Virus record (IMG/VR): IMGVR_UViG_3300018411_000004 | Length of the DNA: 53,756 nt | Direction: 5' to 3' (one strand) | From: a virus | In this document: positions 18,467 through 49,130 of the stretch, in pieces | How positions within the stretch are numbered: the stretch's first letter is position 1 | Layout of the letters: each line of letters begins with the position of its first letter | Translations under genes and position numbers: made by a program | The notes under the pieces: model-generated | What the model was told of the DNA's origin: nothing | Databases searched by the model: none | Seen by the model: the letters and a program-made list of their open reading frames with translations, nothing else

Positions 18467-18724
18467 CTGCCCACTTTTAAAAATGCAAAAGTGGGCAGAG
18501 ACAAAAATTGATGAAATTTGGAGTAAAAATTGATGAAAAAATCGAAAAAATTCGCGAAATGGCCAAAAAAAGTGGGCATTTGCCCACTTTTAAAATCAAA
18601 AGTGGCCACGAACTTTGGCTTATTAGAGCCGTTTGAAGGGCCTTGGTCAAAAACCCACTTTTCTTTTACACTAATGTGAGAGAAAAGTTAATAATATATA
18701 TAAAGAATGGCAAACAAAAGTGGG
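18467..18724. repeat. Iteron-like array: seven copies of AAAAGTGGG(CA) / its complement, including two near-perfect palindromes
   Basis: Palindrome 1 is ctgcccactttt (18467-78) with aaaagtgggcag (18487-98). Palindrome 2 is aaaagtgggca-tt-tgcccactttt (18568-91). Further copies at 18598-608 (variant), 18654-62 and 18716-24. Also a 14-bp direct repeat aaaaattgatgaaa at 18503 and 18525. Confidence 0.8.
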
Positions 18725-18840
18725 TTTTTGGCCACGAGTGATTTTTGGCAATTTTTTGTACGAATCGGTCGTCAAATTTTGCAAAGTATTTTCTTTTTGA
18801 ATTTTTGTCAGATTAATGGTGATTTTGTGGACTTTTACAT

Positions 18841-19636: not shown

Positions 19637-20171
19637 GGGTAGTCACGCTTTTCTTGGAGCGAGTAAATATCACTGGATAAATTATGACGAAAATAAAGTT
19701 GCAGATTCATATTTAAGATTCTTGGCAAGTCGAAAAGGAACTGAGCTTCATGACTTTGCGGCTCGATGTATTTCTTTGAAACAGAAGTTACCAAAATCCA
19801 AGAAGACTTTAAATGCTTATGTAAATGACGCTATAGGTTTTCATATGATTCCAGAACAAACCTTATATTTCTCAGACAATTGTTTCGGAACAGCTGACGC
19901 TATAACCTTTGCTAATAATACTTTGAGAATTCATGATCTGAAAACCGGAGTTATTCCAGGACATATGGAACAGCTTGAAGTTTATACCGCGTTATTCTGT
20001 TTGGAGTATGTGATCGATCCAAAAGATATTAATATCGAATTACGTATTTACCAGAATGATGATATTCTGATTCATAATCCTGATGAGGATGATATTCGTT
20101 ATGTGATTGATAAAATGGTTACGTTTGATAAAATCATTACCAAAATAAAGATTGAGGAGGGTATGGCTTAA
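19608..20171 (+). CDS. PD-(D/E)XK-family nuclease-like protein
   Basis: 187 aa, RBS gaggagg. TADAITF...IHDLKTG motif. Confidence 0.5.
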   Translation: MIFNKHFNLEGSHAFLGASKYHWINYDENKVADSYLRFLASRKGTELHDFAARCISLKQKLPKSKKTLNAYVNDAIGFHMIPEQTLYFSDNCFGTADAITFANNTLRIHDLKTGVIPGHMEQLEVYTALFCLEYVIDPKDINIELRIYQNDDILIHNPDEDDIRYVIDKMVTFDKIITKIKIEEGMA

Positions 20172-22957
20172 TGTATTATTTCGATGATGAGTTAGAACAT
20201 GTTGGAACTAAGAAACATTCAGGCCGATATCCTTGGGGGTCTGGTAAGAATCCATATCAACATAGTGGAGACTTTCTTAGTCGAGTTGAAGAACTTTCTA
20301 AGAATGGTATTTCTCAAAAAGATTTAGCTGATATTTTAGGTATGTCGACAACCGATTTAAGAATGCAGTTGAGAGTTGCCAATCATGAGCGACGCGAATT
20401 ACAAAGAGATCGAGCTAAATCTTTGAGAGCTGACGGTAAGAGTTTACAAGAGATATCTCAGATTATGGGTTTTAAAAATGACTCATCTGTAAGATCTTTA
20501 TTGAACGATAATACCGCAGCTAATAAGAATAAAGCTAAAGTAACTGCTGAGATTCTCAAGAAAGAACTCGAGAAGAAGGGTGACATGCTTGAAGTTGGTG
20601 CAGGTGTTGAAAGAGTTCTTGGTGTATCTAAATTAACTCTTAAAGAAGCGTTATTTACCCTCGAGACGGAAGGTTATAATGTTTATAAAGTTGGAATACC
20701 AGATATGTCTAAACCTGGTAGGCAGTCCAACACAGCTATATTAGCTAAGAGTCATGTTCCGTATGCCGATGCTTATGCGAAGATGGAAACCGTTCAGTCT
20801 GTTGGTGACTATCATTCCAAAGATGGTGGTGACACCTTTAGTCAAAAGAAATATCCAGCTAGTGTTGATTCTAAAAGAATTCATGTTAGATATGGAGATC
20901 AAGGTGGCGCTGCTAAAGATGGAACTATTGAGTTAAGGCGAGGTGTTAAAGATTTAGATCTTGGAACATCTAGTTATGCTCAGGTTCGTATATTAGTTGA
21001 CGGCACTCATTACCTTAAGGGTATGGCTTTATATTCCGATGATATGCCGGATGGCGTTGATATCGTATTTAACACAAATAAGAAGTCTGGAACGCCTAAG
21101 CTAGATACTTTGAAAGAAGTTAAATCTGATAAGTCGAACCCTTTTGGAGCGTATATTAAGGCTCAAGGTCAGAGTACCTATATTGACAAAGATGGTAAAG
21201 AAAAACTTTCAGCTATCAACAAGTTGAAAGAAGAAGGTGACTGGGATAAGATGTCTGAAAACTTATCTTCTCAGTTCTTATCTAAACAACCAATGCAGCT
21301 AATCAATAAACAGTTGAATCTAACATATGCCGATGCTCGAGCATATTTAGATGAGTTGAACTCTTTAACCAATCCGACTATTAAGAAAAAACTCTTATTA
21401 GATTTTGCTGGTAACTGTGAAAGTAAAGCTGTTCATCTTAAAGCGGCTGCACTACCAAGACAGAAAACTCAGGTTATATTACCCTTGACCGGTATATCTG
21501 ATAAGGAAATCTACGCGCCAAACTTTAAAGATGGTGAAAAGGTATCTCTTGTTCGATATCCTCATGGTGGTATATTTGAGATCCCGCAATTAACAGTTAA
21601 CAATAAGAATGCTCAAGGCAGAAGAGTTCTTGGAACCAACGTTAAAGACGCTGTTGGTATACACCCAAACGTTGCTGAAAGATTATCTGGAGCCGACTTC
21701 GATGGCGATCAAGTAATTGTTATTCCAGAATCATCAAAGGTTCATGTTAAATCTAAAGCTCGATTATCTGGGCTTATAGACTTTGATGGAAAGACAGCAT
21801 TCCCACCCAAGACTGAAGACACTTTATATGTGAAGAAAGGTCCTGATGATAAGACTCCACTGTACAACGGTAAGAAAATTTTATCTAAAGTCATGACTAA
21901 AGAGAACACTCAAAGAGAAATGGGTATCGTATCAAATCTTATTACTGATATGACTTTAAGGGGCGCTTCTGATGAGAAGTTAACGAGAGCTATCAAGCAT
22001 AGTATGGTCGTTATTGATGCTGAGAAACATAAATTGGATTATAAAGAATCCGAAAAGGTTAATCGTATCAAAGAACTTAAGAAAGAATATCAGTTACAGT
22101 ATGACGAAAATGGTAAGGAAAAATATGGTGCGTCTACGTTACTCTCTCGTAGAAAGCAAACCGTTGACGTTGATGAGCGTAAAGGTAGCGGCGTTATTGA
22201 TCCAGATACAGGTGTTGTGACATATAAGACTTCTGGTAGAGAATATAAAGAAATTGTTAAAGATAAAGCTACAGGTAAAAGCGTCGAGACTGGAAATATG
22301 ATCAAAGCTAAGTCTAAAGTTAAATTGGTATTAGCAGTTGATGATGTTAAGTCTTTATCTTCTGGAACTTTAGAAGAAGATGCATATGCTGACTATGCAA
22401 ATAAGATGAAAGCTTTAGCGAATGAAGCTAGGAAATTATATAAGTCTACAGGTAACTTAACATATTCTAAAGAAGCCCGTATAAAATATGACAATGAAGT
22501 TCAAGCGTTAAATGCTAGACTTAATATCGCTGCAATGAATGCTCCCAAAGAAAGACAGGCTAGGATAATTGCTAATGGAGTCCTTAAAGCTAAGAAGCAG
22601 GAATATCCTGAGCTGGTCAAAGATAAGAAAGAATCTAAGAAGATATATCAGCAGGCTATGGAGGATGCACGAGCAGCTGTCGGATTGAATAGCAAGGCAG
22701 ATAAGATAGTCTTCTCAGATAAAGAATGGGAAGCCATACAAGCTGGCGCTATCACTGATAATAAGTTAGCTCAGTTACTACGTTATGCTGATGAGGATAA
22801 GTTTAAGGAGAGAGCACTACCCAGAGCTACCACTGAACTATCCCCCGCTTCTATTAGTCGTATCAAAGCTATGCAACAAAGTGGTTACACTAATGAACAG
22901 ATAGCTTCACGATTAGGTAAGTCTGTATCGACAGTGTTTAAGTATCTTAATCAATGA
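20171..22957 (+). CDS. Single-polypeptide two-barrel RNA polymerase (YonO/RdRP-like, beta-prime-type catalytic loop) with HTH modules and an N-terminal leader motif
   Basis: 928 aa. VSLVRYPHGGIFEIP...AVGIHPNVAERLSGADFDGDQVIVIPE aligns with bacterial beta-prime NRAPTLH...[25 protein letters not shown]. DFDGD lies at nt 21695-21709. HTH-like segments near aa 45-110 and at the C-terminus (GYTNEQIASRLGKSVSTVFKYL). Confidence 0.65.
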   Translation: MYYFDDELEHVGTKKHSGRYPWGSGKNPYQHSGDFLSRVEELSKNGISQKDLADILGMSTTDLRMQLRVANHERRELQRDRAKSLRADGKSLQEISQIMGFKNDSSVRSLLNDNTAANKNKAKVTAEILKKELEKKGDMLEVGAGVERVLGVSKLTLKEALFTLETEGYNVYKVGIPDMSKPGRQSNTAILAKSHVPYADAYAKMETVQSVGDYHSKDGGDTFSQKKYPASVDSKRIHVRYGDQGGAAKDGTIELRRGVKDLDLGTSSYAQVRILVDGTHYLKGMALYSDDMPDGVDIVFNTNKKSGTPKLDTLKEVKSDKSNPFGAYIKAQGQSTYIDKDGKEKLSAINKLKEEGDWDKMSENLSSQFLSKQPMQLINKQLNLTYADARAYLDELNSLTNPTIKKKLLLDFAGNCESKAVHLKAAALPRQKTQVILPLTGISDKEIYAPNFKDGEKVSLVRYPHGGIFEIPQLTVNNKNAQGRRVLGTNVKDAVGIHPNVAERLSGADFDGDQVIVIPESSKVHVKSKARLSGLIDFDGKTAFPPKTEDTLYVKKGPDDKTPLYNGKKILSKVMTKENTQREMGIVSNLITDMTLRGASDEKLTRAIKHSMVVIDAEKHKLDYKESEKVNRIKELKKEYQLQYDENGKEKYGASTLLSRRKQTVDVDERKGSGVIDPDTGVVTYKTSGREYKEIVKDKATGKSVETGNMIKAKSKVKLVLAVDDVKSLSSGTLEEDAYADYANKMKALANEARKLYKSTGNLTYSKEARIKYDNEVQALNARLNIAAMNAPKERQARIIANGVLKAKKQEYPELVKDKKESKKIYQQAMEDARAAVGLNSKADKIVFSDKEWEAIQAGAITDNKLAQLLRYADEDKFKERALPRATTELSPASISRIKAMQQSGYTNEQIASRLGKSVSTVFKYLNQ

Positions 22958-22970
22958 AAGGAGTAAGACT

Positions 22971-23222
22971 ATGAAACGATGTGCATTAACAACTACTGAT
23001 AATCCTTATGATCCATTTGAACAATTCGATTCTTGGTATATGTTTGATCTAACTAAAGGTTATAACTCTTGCTCCTATCTTGCAAGGATTGCTCGAACTG
23101 CTGATCAACTATCTGATGAAGAGAATGCTTTGGAGATTGAGAGAGCGATCGATGAAATCATTGAGTTAGACTTTATGGATCGCTATAGAAAAGTTTGTAT
23201 TGATGAAACGAAAGCTTCATAA
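22971..23222 (+). CDS. Hypothetical protein
   Basis: 83 aa, RBS aaaggag. Confidence 0.65.
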   Translation: MKRCALTTTDNPYDPFEQFDSWYMFDLTKGYNSCSYLARIARTADQLSDEENALEIERAIDEIIELDFMDRYRKVCIDETKAS

Positions 23223-23459
23223 CTGTTTGTTCGAATCAATCAACTAAGTTTTAAAAACTTTTTTTATAAATCATAGGGGTGTTTATTATTTAAAAGTTCT
23301 AAAAGTCATGTTTATTAAGTCGTTCAATCTTTTTAGTGTCATGTTAATATTGCATGAACGACTAGACATAAGGGGGGTCTCTGCAAAAACAGCACCCCCT
23401 ATGCATCGCTCTCGTCCTCAAAAATTCCCCGGGGGTGATTTTTAGTCAATGTAAACCAA

Positions 23460-23627
23460 TTACTTACTGTCTGAAAAGTTCCGTGAGAGCCATTACGTAT
23501 CTCCACGACACGTCGCTTCATTAATCGCCTCCTATTGATTAATAAATTTTACCATCCATCCGTCACAGCCTCGCAACCTGTTAAGACTGAACTAAAAGTC
23601 TCACGGAACTTTTCAGACAGTAAGTAA
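23460..23627. repeat. Perfect 29-bp inverted repeat enclosing 110 nt, inside a 439-bp non-coding region
   Basis: ttacttactgtctgaaaagttccgtgaga (23460-88) and tctcacggaacttttcagacagtaagtaa (23599-627). Confidence 0.9.
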
Positions 23628-23661
23628 AACCACACCAAATCTACTAGAAAGGAGGCTAGAA

Positions 23662-24012
23662 GTGAAAAAGAGTAAATCGAAAGACAACACAAAAGGGTCG
23701 ACCAGAACTATGAGACCCGCCGCAACACCAGAAGCAAGAGAGAATCAGTTAGTATCCTTGGCAGTTGAACTTGCAGAGAAGCAATTACTCGATGGAACAG
23801 CCTCCTCTCAAGTCATCACCCACTATCTGAAACTTGGATCAACAAAAGAGAAACTCGATTACGAATTCAAGAGGAAACAGATGGAGCTTATCGAAGCCAA
23901 AACAGAATCACTGCAATCTGCCCAGAGAGTTGAAGAGCTTTACAAGAATGCCCTTGATGCGATGAAAAGTTACAGCGGTGGTATTTCTGGAGCGAACGAT
24001 TACGATGAATAA
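23662..24012 (+). CDS. Putative small terminase / DNA-packaging accessory protein
   Basis: 116 aa with a GTG start after aaaggagg. Basic N-terminus and coiled-coil C-terminus. Sits immediately upstream of HNH. The call rests on position only. Confidence 0.35.
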   Translation: MKKSKSKDNTKGSTRTMRPAATPEARENQLVSLAVELAEKQLLDGTASSQVITHYLKLGSTKEKLDYEFKRKQMELIEAKTESLQSAQRVEELYKNALDAMKSYSGGISGANDYDE

Positions 24013-24415
24013 GTGTTATTCGGAACTTACACAGTTTGAAACGCTTGTAGAACGTTACCGATATTTAAAACTTGGCGGAGAACTTGGAGCGTCTACTTTT
24101 GGTTTCGATCGATATTTAAACCAGCAGTTTTATAAACTTAAAGAATGGAAAATCGCCAGAACACGAGTTATTGTAAGAGATAATGGTTGCGATCTAGGTA
24201 TTCCTGGTTTGGAAATTGTTGGGATGGTTATTGTACACCATATAAACCCAATAACGATCGACGATGTCAAAAATCGAAACCCAATCTTATTCGATCCTGA
24301 GTTTCTAATATCCACACAATTAAATACTCACAACGCTATTCATTACGGGGACGAATCGCTATTGATATCTGAAACCCCGTTAGAAAGGAGTCCGAATGAT
24401 ACAAAATTATGGTAA
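24005..24415 (+). CDS. HNH endonuclease
   Basis: RDNGCDLG...VHHINP...NTHNAIH. ATGAATAA overlap with the upstream gene. Confidence 0.8.
   Translation: MNKCYSELTQFETLVERYRYLKLGGELGASTFGFDRYLNQQFYKLKEWKIARTRVIVRDNGCDLGIPGLEIVGMVIVHHINPITIDDVKNRNPILFDPEFLISTQLNTHNAIHYGDESLLISETPLERSPNDTKLW
24381..24415 (+). repeat. 35-bp direct repeat, copy 1
   Basis: tagaaaggagtccgaatgatacaaaattatggtaa, identical to 25109-25143. Confidence 0.9.
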
Positions 24416-45747: not shown

Positions 45748-47790
45748 ATGGCCGATATTACAAACGCTATAAATGATTTTAAGACGGCGGCAAATGGCGA
45801 AGCTGTTAGAGACAGTTTCGTCGCCACCATCAACCTAGTGAATGATGATAACGTAAACATCATTGGAAAACTTAACACCCTCGAACCAAAACTTGATAAC
45901 TTAGACGAAAGTGTTTCTAGCGCTCAAACGAGCGCTAATAATGCTGCTGGTTCTGCGACAATCGCTACCACACAAGCTGGGATATCCACCACGAAAGCTT
46001 CTGAATCTTCCGCCAGTGCGGCGGCATCACAAACAGCTAAGAATGATTCGGTTACGGCAAAGAACGCTTCTCAACTAGCTGAAACAAATGCTAAAGCTTC
46101 TGAAAATGCTGCAAAGTTATCCGAAACTAATTCCAAAGCTTCTGAAAATGCTGCAAAGTTATCCGAAACTAATTCCAAAGCGTCGGAGACAAATTCTGTC
46201 ATAAAAGCTGCGGAGGCTCTGGCTTCTAAAACCGCCGCAGAAACAGCTAAAACACAAACTCTAGAATATAAAGACGCCGTCTTAGCAGCGGTTGGCGGAT
46301 CAACTAACTTAGCAGAAATTATTGAAGCTCGGAAAACAAAAGCAACACTAGGAGAAAAGATTTCCGATATTGATTCGCAATTGGCAGATATTCGGGACAG
46401 GGATAAAACGGTAAAAGAATTTGGAGTCCGTATATACGATGGTCAATCCTCAGGAACTTTAGAGCGAATCCTCGACAGCATCGGTATGGTTGCAAATGCA
46501 GCGGTAGGCACTGGAAGTGTCGTCAACGATTTTGACACTGCAATTGGTTGGCCACGCAGACGGACTGTGAACGGTTATTATGACGAGACTGCTAAGAAAA
46601 TGATTGTTACAGCAAGTAAAGGTGAACCGGGATTTAAGACGGACGGTACAAATGGTAATGTTTGGGTTGAGACTGAAAAGTTCTACGTAAAACGAGTGGT
46701 TGGGGCTGGATATGTTGACGAAAGTATTTGTAAGGAGCAACTACCTGGATATACGTTATTTGATAAATTCAGAGGGTTAGACGGTGAAGAATTAGATTTT
46801 GGATATTCCGGTGCCTATGAAGTCGGAACGGATGGTAGCGGTAATCCTATTTCATGGTCAGGCGTAAATCCAACCAATATTTCTCACGATTCAGGATTAA
46901 CTTTAGCAAGAAAACTCGGTACTCGCTACCACATGGACGACACGACCGATATTGAACTCGTCCGTTTAATGATGATGATCGAATTTGCGACGCTTAATTC
47001 TCAAACCGCAATTGGTCAAGGAGTTTGTAGCCTTAATTACAGTAATGCAAGCTCAGTTGCCACCATAGCAGAAACATCCGTCAATCGTGTAATCCTTGCG
47101 AACGCTCAAGCTAATTTATTTGTAGTCGGTCAAACGATCATAATCGGAACTACGAACAATAATACAAATGTTGCAAACAACCGAAAAGTGTTATCGATCG
47201 ACGTTTATGATGCGAGCAACAAAGCATTAACTTTCGATGGAGCAGCTGTAAACATCGCTGTCGGCAACTTCGTAGGCTCTCGAATAACTCGTACAGGCGA
47301 AACGGACACGATAACTGCAAGCTCTGGAACATTAGTAAACGATGGTAAACACGCAGTAATATATCGTGGTACTGAAAATCCTTTTGGAAATGGCTGGAAG
47401 GTTGCATCTGATGTTGTCTTTAAAAATGAAGATTCTATAATGTATATATGCAGAGATCCACGAAAAAGAGTCGTTGGAATGTCGGCCTTAACAGCTGATT
47501 ATAAACCGATTGGATACACTTTAGCAACATCCGAAGGATATGTAACAGCTTTAGGCTACGATCCTAACTACCCAAGCGCAAGATTTGCAACCGCAGTTGG
47601 AGGATCTTCAAGTACATACTTTGGAGATTATTTCTACCGCAACACAGTCGCAACTATCGGATTAAGAGAAGTTTTAAACGGCGGTTATTTCAATGATGGC
47701 GCGGGCGATGGCTGTTCTTATTGGCTCTTGTTCCACGCTCTGTCGTCGTCGTACTTCACTCTTGCCGGTCGGCTTTCTGTGACTGGATAA
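45748..47790 (+). CDS. Tail fibre / receptor-binding protein, the DGR target (C-terminal variable region)
   Basis: 680 aa. The N-terminus is a Ser/Ala/Asn-rich coiled region with a 42-bp tandem repeat. The C-terminal 34 codons match the downstream template repeat except at template adenines. Confidence 0.85.
   Translation: MADITNAINDFKTAANGEAVRDSFVATINLVNDDNVNIIGKLNTLEPKLDNLDESVSSAQTSANNAAGSATIATTQAGISTTKASESSASAAASQTAKNDSVTAKNASQLAETNAKASENAAKLSETNSKASENAAKLSETNSKASETNSVIKAAEALASKTAAETAKTQTLEYKDAVLAAVGGSTNLAEIIEARKTKATLGEKISDIDSQLADIRDRDKTVKEFGVRIYDGQSSGTLERILDSIGMVANAAVGTGSVVNDFDTAIGWPRRRTVNGYYDETAKKMIVTASKGEPGFKTDGTNGNVWVETEKFYVKRVVGAGYVDESICKEQLPGYTLFDKFRGLDGEELDFGYSGAYEVGTDGSGNPISWSGVNPTNISHDSGLTLARKLGTRYHMDDTTDIELVRLMMMIEFATLNSQTAIGQGVCSLNYSNASSVATIAETSVNRVILANAQANLFVVGQTIIIGTTNNNTNVANNRKVLSIDVYDASNKALTFDGAAVNIAVGNFVGSRITRTGETDTITASSGTLVNDGKHAVIYRGTENPFGNGWKVASDVVFKNEDSIMYICRDPRKRVVGMSALTADYKPIGYTLATSEGYVTALGYDPNYPSARFATAVGGSSSTYFGDYFYRNTVATIGLREVLNGGYFNDGAGDGCSYWLLFHALSSSYFTLAGRLSVTG
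46096..46179 (+). repeat. Perfect 42-bp tandem repeat x2 (ASENAAKLSETNSK)
   Basis: gcttctgaaaatgctgcaaagttatccgaaactaattccaaa at 46096-46137 and 46138-46179. Confidence 0.9.
47678..47778 (+). repeat. DGR variable region (VR)
   Basis: 101 bp aligned by hand to 47824-47924. There are 21 differences, and 20 of them fall at template adenines. Confidence 0.85.
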
Positions 47791-47924: not shown

Positions 47925-48038
47925 TTTAAAATGCAACACGACTTCGAGAGTCCTTACCTCTAGGTAAAAATTAAGCGATAAAACGGGGCTAGTAATGAGA
48001 GTGAAACTCCTGTAGCTGAAAGAAAGGTAACAACGTTA

Positions 48039-49130
48039 TTGAAACGATATCATATAGACACTATATTAGAACTTGACAAAATAGAGGAGGCTATCATAGT
48101 GGCCTCAAAGCACAAAAGACACAGAGCATCAGTTCAGAGAGTATTAGATAATAAAGAGATGTACGCTAGAAGAATAAGACATTTATTAATATTTGAACTC
48201 TTTGAACCGACTTTGAGACCTCCATTTAAAATAATAGATGGAGTATCCAGAAAAGAACGTATGATAGATTCTGCGCCATTCTATCCGGATCAAATAATAC
48301 ATACATTATTAGTTGCGGCGTTTAAACCGTATTTCATGAAAGGTATGTATGAATTTTGCAGTGCATGTGTACCAGGACGAGGAGTACATTATGGTAAAAA
48401 ATACGTAGAGCGATGGTTGAAAAATGATTTAAAGAATACCCGATATTTCTTAAAACTTGATATCAGGAAGTATTACCCAAGTTTAAAACCTAAGGTGGTA
48501 TGGTCTTTGTTGTGTAGAAAATTTAAGGATTCTAAGGCTATGAGAGTTTTGAAAAAGATAGTCTTCGCCTATCCAGGATTACCAATAGGTCTTTTAACCA
48601 GTCAATGGTTAGCCAATTTTTGTCTCCAAGGTCTCGATCACTATATAAAAGAGGTTCTTCATATACCGTATTACATTCGATATCTAGATGATATGGTGTT
48701 ATTTTCGGATGACAAAAAACTTCTACATAAAGCAAGACTTAAAATAAAATGCTACCTATCAAAACTAGGACTAGCCTTGAAGAGTAACTGGCAGGTAAAT
48801 AAGTTCGATTACGATTATGGTACAGCTCGTAGAAAAGGTCAAGATTTAGATTTCATGGGGTTTAGATTTTTTAGAGATAAAACAATAATAAGAAAAGCTA
48901 TAAGTTTACGTATCAGAAGACGCGTGAAAAAGGTTTCTAAAACAACCAACCCTCGTATGAAAGACGTTAAGGCGGTGTTATCTTATTTGGGATGGGTAAA
49001 ACATACGGATAGTTATATATTTTATAACGAAACGTTTGGGAAGTATTTAAGTATTAATAAATTAAGAAAGATGGTGAGTGTTCATGACAGGAAAAAGCAA
49101 TCTACGACCTCCGAAGTTCAGTATTGTTGA
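48039..49130 (+). CDS. DGR reverse transcriptase
   Basis: 363 aa with a TTG start. YIRYLDDMVLF (YxDD) and the DGR-typical LPIGLLTSQ (IGxxxSQ). Confidence 0.85.
   Translation: MKRYHIDTILELDKIEEAIIVASKHKRHRASVQRVLDNKEMYARRIRHLLIFELFEPTLRPPFKIIDGVSRKERMIDSAPFYPDQIIHTLLVAAFKPYFMKGMYEFCSACVPGRGVHYGKKYVERWLKNDLKNTRYFLKLDIRKYYPSLKPKVVWSLLCRKFKDSKAMRVLKKIVFAYPGLPIGLLTSQWLANFCLQGLDHYIKEVLHIPYYIRYLDDMVLFSDDKKLLHKARLKIKCYLSKLGLALKSNWQVNKFDYDYGTARRKGQDLDFMGFRFFRDKTIIRKAISLRIRRRVKKVSKTTNPRMKDVKAVLSYLGWVKHTDSYIFYNETFGKYLSINKLRKMVSVHDRKKQSTTSEVQYC

Follow-up and report, generated by a model that had tools for sequence, protein, structure and literature searches.

Inferred cohesive ends and a covarying candidate RNA leader in the intergenic region ahead of the late operon of an uncultured siphophage

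The IMG/VR virus record IMGVR_UViG_3300018411_000004 contains a 439-bp gap (23223-23661) between a gene of protein family PHROG 4303 and a gene of family PHROG 4259, which raises the question of what this non-coding region does. The whole stretch of DNA analyzed, 53,756 nt long, is called the window; it is a circularly closed assembly with an exact 123-bp terminal overlap (1-123 = 53634-53756) and 53,633 unique bases. An original prediction, made from the letters of the window, had listed hairpins, a long inverted repeat, an element complementary to a Shine-Dalgarno (SD) sequence (anti-SD) and an antisense micro-open reading frame (micro-ORF) in the gap, and had offered a packaging site, an RNase III site or transcription barrier, a translational switch or a toxin-like locus as possible roles. 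Our analysis suggests that the gap probably comprises the joined physical ends of the genome together with the leader of the late (packaging/structural) operon. Its description as the only GC-rich island did not hold, since the GC content of the 439 bp (0.376) lies below the genome mean (0.385). What stood of this description is a 70-nt core at 23365-23434 (GC 0.557, top 0.18% of windows), and even this core is not unique, as other windows of the genome are richer.

Judged from its sequence, the window belongs to a cos-type (cohesive-end) siphophage, and its group joins Lactococcus phage 1706, Faecalibacterium phage FP_oengus and an actinophage supercluster that includes Mudcat, Bing, Gravy and others. 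Phage records searched at the DNA level with 23100-23800 contained nothing matching, and relatives were therefore gathered through the flanking proteins: 80 IMG/VR relatives of the downstream gene were used for the cos site and the leader, and right-end and junction-spanning contigs were fetched via the upstream gene. The gene order of the family was found in the window, with a two-barrel RNA polymerase (RNAP), resembling RNA-dependent RNA polymerases (RdRP-like), and PHROG 4303 on the right-end side, and PHROG 4259 and an HNH endonuclease on the left-end side. PHROG 4259 is followed by the HNH endonuclease, a connector protein, three DUF7211 proteins and the large terminase subunit (TerL). 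Features of the region are collected in Table 1.

The position of cos was read from the ends of the relatives' contigs. In 48 of the 80 contigs, the end falls within 0-290 nt upstream of the PHROG 4259 gene. The motif CCGGGGG lies within the first 60 nt in 42 contigs, and 32 of these 42 begin exactly 11 nt before it. Three more contigs (L024, L058 and L070) carry a remnant of an Illumina adapter fused at the same base, giving 35 independent contigs in total. An adapter ligated at that base means that the DNA physically ended there, as opposed to the assembly breaking off. The relative L001, 97% identical to the window, begins at the base equivalent to 23416. On the other side, right-end contigs terminate in ...G-run-CAAAAA-C-run-N-CAT (also seen as ...CACCCCC-N-CAT), and in L103 an adapter is fused there as well. 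We noticed that these adapters remain in the public IMG/VR contigs (5' ends of L024, L058 and L070; 3' end of L103), where they are useful evidence of ends and yet a contamination of the records.

Contigs that span the junction read ...CAT, then CGCNNNNNT, then C.T.AAAAATTC.CCGGGGG. The nine bases CGCNNNNNT are present in these contigs and missing from both left-end and right-end contigs. A 3' overhang trimmed off by end repair would be lost from left and right ends alike; a 5' overhang would instead be filled in, and its bases would show on both. We therefore infer 3' polarity from the nine missing nucleotides and from published relatives. In the window, the corresponding junction reads ...CACCCCCTATGCAT (to 23406), then CGCTCTCGT (23407-15), then CCTCAAAAATTCCCCGGGGGTG (from 23416), so that the inferred duplex ends are ...TATGCAT (23406) on the right and C23416 on the left. 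TerL, aided by the adjacent HNH endonuclease, would nick after 23406 on the partner of the top strand and before 23416, and these staggered nicks would leave a 9-nt 3' overhang, CGCTCTCGT. The packaged genome would then run from 23416 around the assembly to 23415, with a unique length of 53,633 bp.

That cos lies at these bases appears almost certain to us. Unique ends are supported by homology, namely by the 35 left-end contigs, the right-end stops at ...CAT, and the records of 1706 and four actinophages, and the window encodes both an HNH endonuclease and TerL beside the site. Two points weigh against the exact placement: the 3' polarity depends on the nucleotides missing from both kinds of end contig and on published relatives, and the window's own ends depend on homology and on one near-identical relative. 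The packaging-site role that had been among the original candidates is thus borne out, with placement to the base by inference from relatives. On this evidence, the cos site would be an ordinary feature of a known phage family, newly located to the base.

The inferred cut is flanked by two elements, both of which had been noticed in the original prediction and are present where it placed them. On the right-end side, the hairpin between a G6 and a C5 run keeps its sequence at the right ends of contigs from relatives, as it does in Mudcat, 1706 and FP_oengus; its DNA fold has an energy of −7.8 kcal/mol (z = −2.3). The left end opens with CCTCAAAAATT-CCCCGGGGG (23416-23435), which is part of an imperfect 26-bp dyad of an A-tract, CCCCGGGGG and a T-tract, with the palindrome (23427-35) at its centre. 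We propose that the two elements act as recognition sequences, and the left-end element is a probable recognition site of terminase or the HNH endonuclease. As separate observations, GGGGTG-T-rich words stand on either side of cos as a 78% identical direct repeat (23276-23293 and 23432-23449), one about 130 nt before the nick and the other within the left-end dyad. Further, the left ends of Mudcat, Gravy, Bing and Madamato (L167, L168, L169 and L163) carry a second direct copy of CCCCGGGGG-A/T about 50 nt inside, which is found neither in the window nor in most low-GC relatives.

Downstream of cos lies the second element of the gap, the perfect 29-bp inverted repeat with 110 nt between its arms, which is present as the original prediction described it. 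No inverted repeat in the window is longer. Folded as RNA, 23455-23670 reaches −62.2 kcal/mol (z = −8.1 versus shuffles). An inverted repeat scoring at least 13 was found in 50 of 55 distinct leaders, versus none of 165 shuffles and 1 of 163 coding controls, and the repeats of relatives have arms of 17-36 nt and loops of 37-123 nt. In a second set of independently fetched junction-spanning contigs, 34 of 35 contain the repeat. As a separate observation, the second-longest inverted repeat of the window (18644-18734; 23-nt arms, 91% complementary, 45 nt apart) lies in another non-coding block.

The arm sequences differ widely among relatives, and their complementarity is kept. With the arms aligned by MAFFT, pairing holds in 91% of cells, compared with 33-45% when the partner columns are slid by 1-3. 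Double-sided changes occur at 33 of 33 pairs, with 225 compensatory cells versus 63 ± 8 in shuffles. The rows of this alignment were cut around the repeat found by our own script; RNAalifold, given uncut leaders, arrived at this helix too, with compensatory changes at 23 of its 28 pairs. The covarying hairpin was found in about 85 distinct contigs. No match reaching the gathering score was obtained from Rfam 15 for the hairpin in the window and in 15 relatives; the sub-threshold hits were all to long-hairpin microRNA (miRNA) precursors, which we judged spurious. Taken together, the comparative data leave us with little doubt that the hairpin is a selected structure.

We then considered the molecule in which this structure acts. 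Mismatches in the arms are biased, with G·T and A·C at 90:27 overall and at 60:17 in 35 dereplicated representatives (p about 1e-6), and the arm alignment contains conserved G·U columns. Pairing at every position also counts for RNA, because protein half-sites would not require it. The loop motif described below is fixed to one strand. The contigs of L040, L061 and L066 begin at the physical left end and carry the hairpin 1.2-2.5 kb further in, immediately ahead of the PHROG 4259 gene; one or two plus-strand genes precede it, and no repeat adjoins cos. In L170, a hairpin 98.5% identical to that of the window lies between two DUF7211-type genes, with no cos-like motif beside it. Among the four points in favour of plus-strand RNA, this separability from cos appears the most telling, and displacement in four relatives suggests that the hairpin is most likely a leader module of RNA, separate from cos. 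Overall, we consider it probable that the hairpin acts as RNA and not as DNA. The difference in folding energy between the strands was dropped as an indicator, as the plus strand folds better in 49 of 53 leaders and also in 89 of 106 coding controls.

Gene content around the hairpin also varies. Extra DUF7211-leader genes (N-terminus HYGVKGMKWG) are found after the hairpin in L001 (241-1029) and both before and after it in L170 (1-258 and 470 onward), and in L001 the ribosome-binding site (RBS) of the next gene is duplicated. From these arrangements, the base of the hairpin seems to serve as a boundary at which DUF7211-leader cassettes recombine.

Inside the loop, the small hairpin TTAATC-GCCTCCTATT-GATTAA (23521-23542), which had also been predicted, displays an anti-SD-like sequence, GCCUCCUAUU (23527-23536). 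A CTCC-type loop motif occurs in 50 of 53 relatives. It is always on the plus strand, as shown by 73 occurrences of CTCCT against none of AGGAG. It reads CUCCUUUC in most relatives and GCCUCCU in the window; the commonest form in the loops is TCTCCTTTC, with CACCTCCTTTC, which is the 3' tail of 16S rRNA, in some. The predicted probability of being unpaired is 0.53 for the motif versus 0.18 for loop 6-mers generally, and it is 0.99 in the window. The complementarity of GCCTCCT (23527-33) to AGGAGGC that had been pointed out is real, and it extends to 13 Watson-Crick pairs and one G-U pair over 17 nt, reaching the GTG start. The energy of this duplex is −19.6 kcal/mol, versus −14.7 kcal/mol for shuffled loops (p = 0.03).

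A strong SD lies 10-120 nt downstream of the hairpin, and the stem, of at least two helical turns, is intercistronic or heads the late operon. An RNase III site would call for a double-stranded stem of about 20 bp or more in a transcript; the predicted stem is 29 bp and perfect in the window and 17-36 bp in relatives, and it lies between plus-strand genes. Long, near-perfect intercistronic stems are the RNase III sites of T7, of the lambda N-leader and of SP82 early RNA, and exposed pyrimidine loops complementary to the SD are known from anti-SD leaders and from the C-rich loops of small RNAs of the RsaE/RoxS type. The likeness of the window hairpin to RNase III hairpins and anti-SD leaders is one of anatomy only, with no similarity to an Rfam family.

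Based on this anatomy, we propose that the 29-bp repeat is the closing stem of a hairpin of about 170 nt in the plus-strand RNA of the late operon, and that the hairpin would be a separable module, always just upstream of a gene with a strong SD. Our best guess is that it controls the first late cistron post-transcriptionally. A perfect stem of at least two helical turns would be a natural substrate of RNase III and/or a stabilizer of mRNA ends, while the exposed anti-SD may pair with the SD and start codon at 23650-23664, so that translation would depend on processing or refolding. This specific combination of anti-SD pairing and RNase III is possible, and we hold it at less than an even chance. 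Of the RNase III site or anti-SD switch that had originally been suggested, the anatomy fits, including covariation, G-U bias, a strand-fixed accessible CUCC and the intercistronic position; a signal of specific pairing with the own SD did not emerge.

Several observations count against this mechanism or against the RNA reading on which it builds. The window itself has no CUCCUUUC and holds only the GCCUCCU variant. Loop-SD complementarity across relatives is modest (mean z = −1.6), and duplexes with the own SD are no better than those with SDs of other relatives (−17.2 versus −16.7 kcal/mol, no specific signal), as SDs vary little among the relatives. With the long stem in place, any pairing between loop and SD would create a pseudoknot. 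The G·T excess in the arms could partly reflect a C-to-T mutation bias on the plus strand, and the strand comparison of folding energies was, as mentioned, uninformative. No late-operon promoter was found, with no sigma-70-like site on the plus strand of the region, and the early promoter box TTATATGAAG is absent between 18.9 and 26.7 kb. With none detected in the leader, the late transcript may begin farther upstream and run across the joined cos. Finally, the long hairpin was not found in the actinophage relatives examined, in which the best inverted-repeat score is 8-10, and from these genomes it would not be essential to the biology that the group shares.

A broader interpretation is that the hairpin represents an undescribed family of phage regulatory RNA. 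In this view, a long-stem module heading the late operon would display a sequence (CUCCUUUC) that imitates the 3' tail of 16S rRNA. It would gate late translation by masking SDs until RNase III or refolding releases them; the target could be the first late cistron, in cis, or the module could act in trans after being processed into a small RNA. We put this forward tentatively, as an idea that we think more likely to fail than to hold. If it is true, late expression would also come to depend on cohesive-end joining, through read-through from the right end into a leader placed just within the left end.

The hairpin might instead be passive RNA, that is, a barrier or terminator between the middle and late units or a 5'/3' stabilizer, with a CUCC that has no translational role. 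The stable long stem (z = −8.1) would suit this, as would its location where the polymerase/replication module gives way to the late operon and the lack of specific covariation between SD and anti-SD. Yet no U-tract follows the stem, and a terminator scan of the region found none. Moreover, CUCCUUUC is invariant across relatives with wholly different stems and is preferentially unpaired, and a passive stem needs neither invariance nor accessibility. We regard a purely passive role as doubtful, at roughly one chance among several.

A role in double-stranded DNA was also weighed, in which the repeat would be a cosB-like site, with two inverted sites for the small terminase or another dimeric protein joined by a bending spacer, as in R3/R2 of lambda and R3/rR2 of N15. 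In N15, R3 lies at bp 48-59, and in lambda R2 is inverted relative to R3 (PMC4669245). The left arm of the repeat starts 39-51 nt from the physical end in most relatives, like R3 of lambda and N15 cosB, which also counts against the RNA reading; and in L001, L036 and L052, where a gene was inserted downstream of the hairpin, the repeat stayed beside cos. A fixed distance is nevertheless contradicted by L040, L061 and L066, with the repeat kilobases inside and none near cos, and by L170, with the repeat between two genes. Covariation at all 33 positions is expected of base pairing and not of protein half-sites. In addition, the excess of G·T over A·C (60:17) and the fixed strand of the loop motif do not suit a DNA site, the arms diverge strongly while TerL, HNH and PHROG 4259 stay 65-80% conserved, and the examined actinophages share the cos motifs without the repeat. 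With the hairpin displaced in four relatives, the cosB-like role was largely rejected, and we consider it unlikely.

The original prediction had further raised a toxin-like peptide gene on the minus strand, with GAAAGGAG / AGGAGG in the loop as its RBS. In the window, AGGAGG-N6-ATG does open a 40-codon ORF, and in minus-strand reading the loop motif is a canonical strong SD in nearly all relatives. An SD-coupled start was, however, found in only 34 of 53 leaders, leaving 19 without one; the ORFs have 2-35 codons (median 13), and no conserved peptide was observed. The ORF of the window crosses the cos cut and would thus be severed in virion DNA, the stem mismatches favour the plus strand, and the other genes are all on the plus strand, as reported for the family (PMC4110766). 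The ORF is most likely fortuitous and a gene there very improbable, and the claim that it would be the only minus-strand gene of the genome loses its footing, as it relies on an unconserved ORF.

Least credible of all is that the 168-bp repeat-flanked segment is a mobile element like a miniature inverted-repeat transposable element (MITE) inserted near cos: its 29-bp terminal inverted repeats are perfect and its Rfam similarity is only to hairpin-shaped miRNA precursors, but the arm sequence was found in a single IMG/VR contig, no second repeat of that size was found in the window, no target-site duplication or empty site supports an insertion, homologous covarying hairpins stand at the same place in about 85 relatives, and the 235-nt leader from CCGGGGG to the start codon is typical of the family (134-291 nt) and thus argues that the repeat was not inserted; this candidate was rejected.

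Table 1. Features in and around the 439-bp gap of the window
Feature	Coordinates	Strand	Remarks
Two-barrel, RdRP-like RNA polymerase gene	20171-22957		upstream of the PHROG 4303 gene
PHROG 4303 gene (83 aa)	22971-23222	+	last gene of the inferred physical genome; homologue last in Arthrobacter phage Mudcat and Lactococcus phage 1706 (orf76)
Right-end cos element	23371-23400	.	imperfect hairpin/dyad of a G6 run, CAAAAA and a C5 run; stops 6 nt short of the inferred nick
Antisense ORF (40 codons), judged fortuitous	23399-23521	−	unconserved in presence, length and sequence; crosses the cos cut
Inferred cohesive end, 9-nt 3' overhang 5'-CGCTCTCGT-3'	23407-23415	+	flanked by the inferred nick sites
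Left-end cos element CCTCAAAAATT-CCCCGGGGG-TGATTTTTAG	23416-23449	.	relatives' contigs and records start there
5' arm of long leader hairpin	23460-23488	+	
110-nt loop region	23489-23598	+	holds apical hairpin TTAATC/GATTAA
3' arm of long leader hairpin	23599-23627	+	
SD and GTG start of first late gene	23650-23664	+	AGGAGGC at 23650-56
PHROG 4259 gene (116 aa)	23662-24012	+	first gene at the inferred physical left end; homologue first gene in Streptomyces phage records
HNH endonuclease gene (PHROG 4321)	23978-24415	+	putative terminase partner in cos cleavage, by analogy with HK97 gp74
TerL gene	27018-28763	+	ATPase and nuclease domains

The predicted structure of the PHROG 4259 protein consists of a basic tail and two long helices (predicted local distance difference test, pLDDT, 79), with no match in Pfam, PDB sequences or Foldseek. 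No recognizable small terminase subunit (TerS) was found in the window phage, and our guess is that the PHROG 4259 protein may be the small terminase.

Two observations concern other parts of the window. At 47955-49130, an Rfam RT-18 motif (42.1 bits, just over gathering) lies directly upstream of a 363-aa ORF with an RVT_1 domain (E = 1e-10), and the locus adjoins a 680-aa ORF (45748-47790) without a Pfam match; it is a possible diversity-generating or other reverse transcriptase (RT) system. At 68-138, Rfam calls a tRNA (44 bits), and ARAGORN finds no tRNA in the window.

The placement of cos would give the true ends and orientation of an uncultured phage genome, with a left end at 23416 and a length of 53,633 bp. 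It would also provide a simple sequence rule by which the ends could be located in hundreds of related contigs from gut and soil phages (...C-run-N6-8-CAT, then CGCNNNNNT, then C.T.AAAAATTC.CCGGGGG), which holds for the Firmicutes and Actinobacteria phages examined. The leader hairpin, covarying, strand-specific, with an anti-SD-like loop and absent from Rfam, can be tested as a candidate regulator of late genes, acting after transcription, in phages with a two-barrel RNAP of their own. For work in culture, Lactococcus phage 1706 with L. lactis and FP_oengus with F. prausnitzii offer a way in.

Among known systems, lambda and N15 cosB (R3-I1-R2-R1) resemble the window repeat in having inverted sequences that begin some 45-50 bp from the nick, on the side that is first to be packaged (PMC4669245), and differ from it in that the arms of the window repeat are twice as long, all of its positions pair, and in some relatives it lies kilobases from cos. 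In HK97, the HNH protein gp74 stimulates cos cleavage by TerL and gives a 3' overhang of about 10 nt (PMC9410871, PMC3592412). The window is like this type of packaging (TerL, TerS and HNH gp74) in its HNH gene beside cos and the terminase genes and in its inferred 3' overhang; the cos sequence is unrelated, and TerS is not recognizable in the window.

A family with conserved gene blocks at opposite genome ends has been described by Koert et al. (10.1101/842583), and the searched parts of that work do not mention cohesive ends or overhangs. Within the parts of the family literature searched (10.1101/842583, PMC4110766), we likewise found no mention of a cos conserved between phages of Firmicutes and Actinobacteria. 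The actinophage supercluster (Arthrobacter phage Mudcat, Streptomyces phages Bing and Madamato, Gordonia phage Gravy) is like the window in its end motifs, its flanking genes and its TerL, which in the actinophages bearing the same cos motifs is 79% identical to that of the window. The Mudcat record ends G-run..C-run..TGCAT-CGCCGGCCT, and the Mudcat, Madamato, Bing and Gravy records begin CC.NAAAAA.NCCCCGGGGG. The actinophages differ in a second copy of CCGGGGG about 50 nt in, in high GC content and in their hosts.

The closest comparison with measured ends is Lactococcus phage 1706, whose cos was determined by sequencing; 1706 and its relatives P078, P092, P118 and P162 (Fremauxvirus group) have 3' protruding ends of 9-10 nt that start with (C)GC (PMC4110766). 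The 1706 record begins CTCTAAAATTTCCCCG and ends ...GGGGGG..CAAAAAA..TTTGCATCGCCCTGTCT. It differs from the window in its overhang sequence and in the first gene after cos, and similarity at the DNA level is confined to short motifs. As in the window, the two-barrel RNAP is followed by a PHROG 4303 homologue and then the end, with genes all on one strand, and 1706 also carries a weaker long-range stem with two CUCC motifs.

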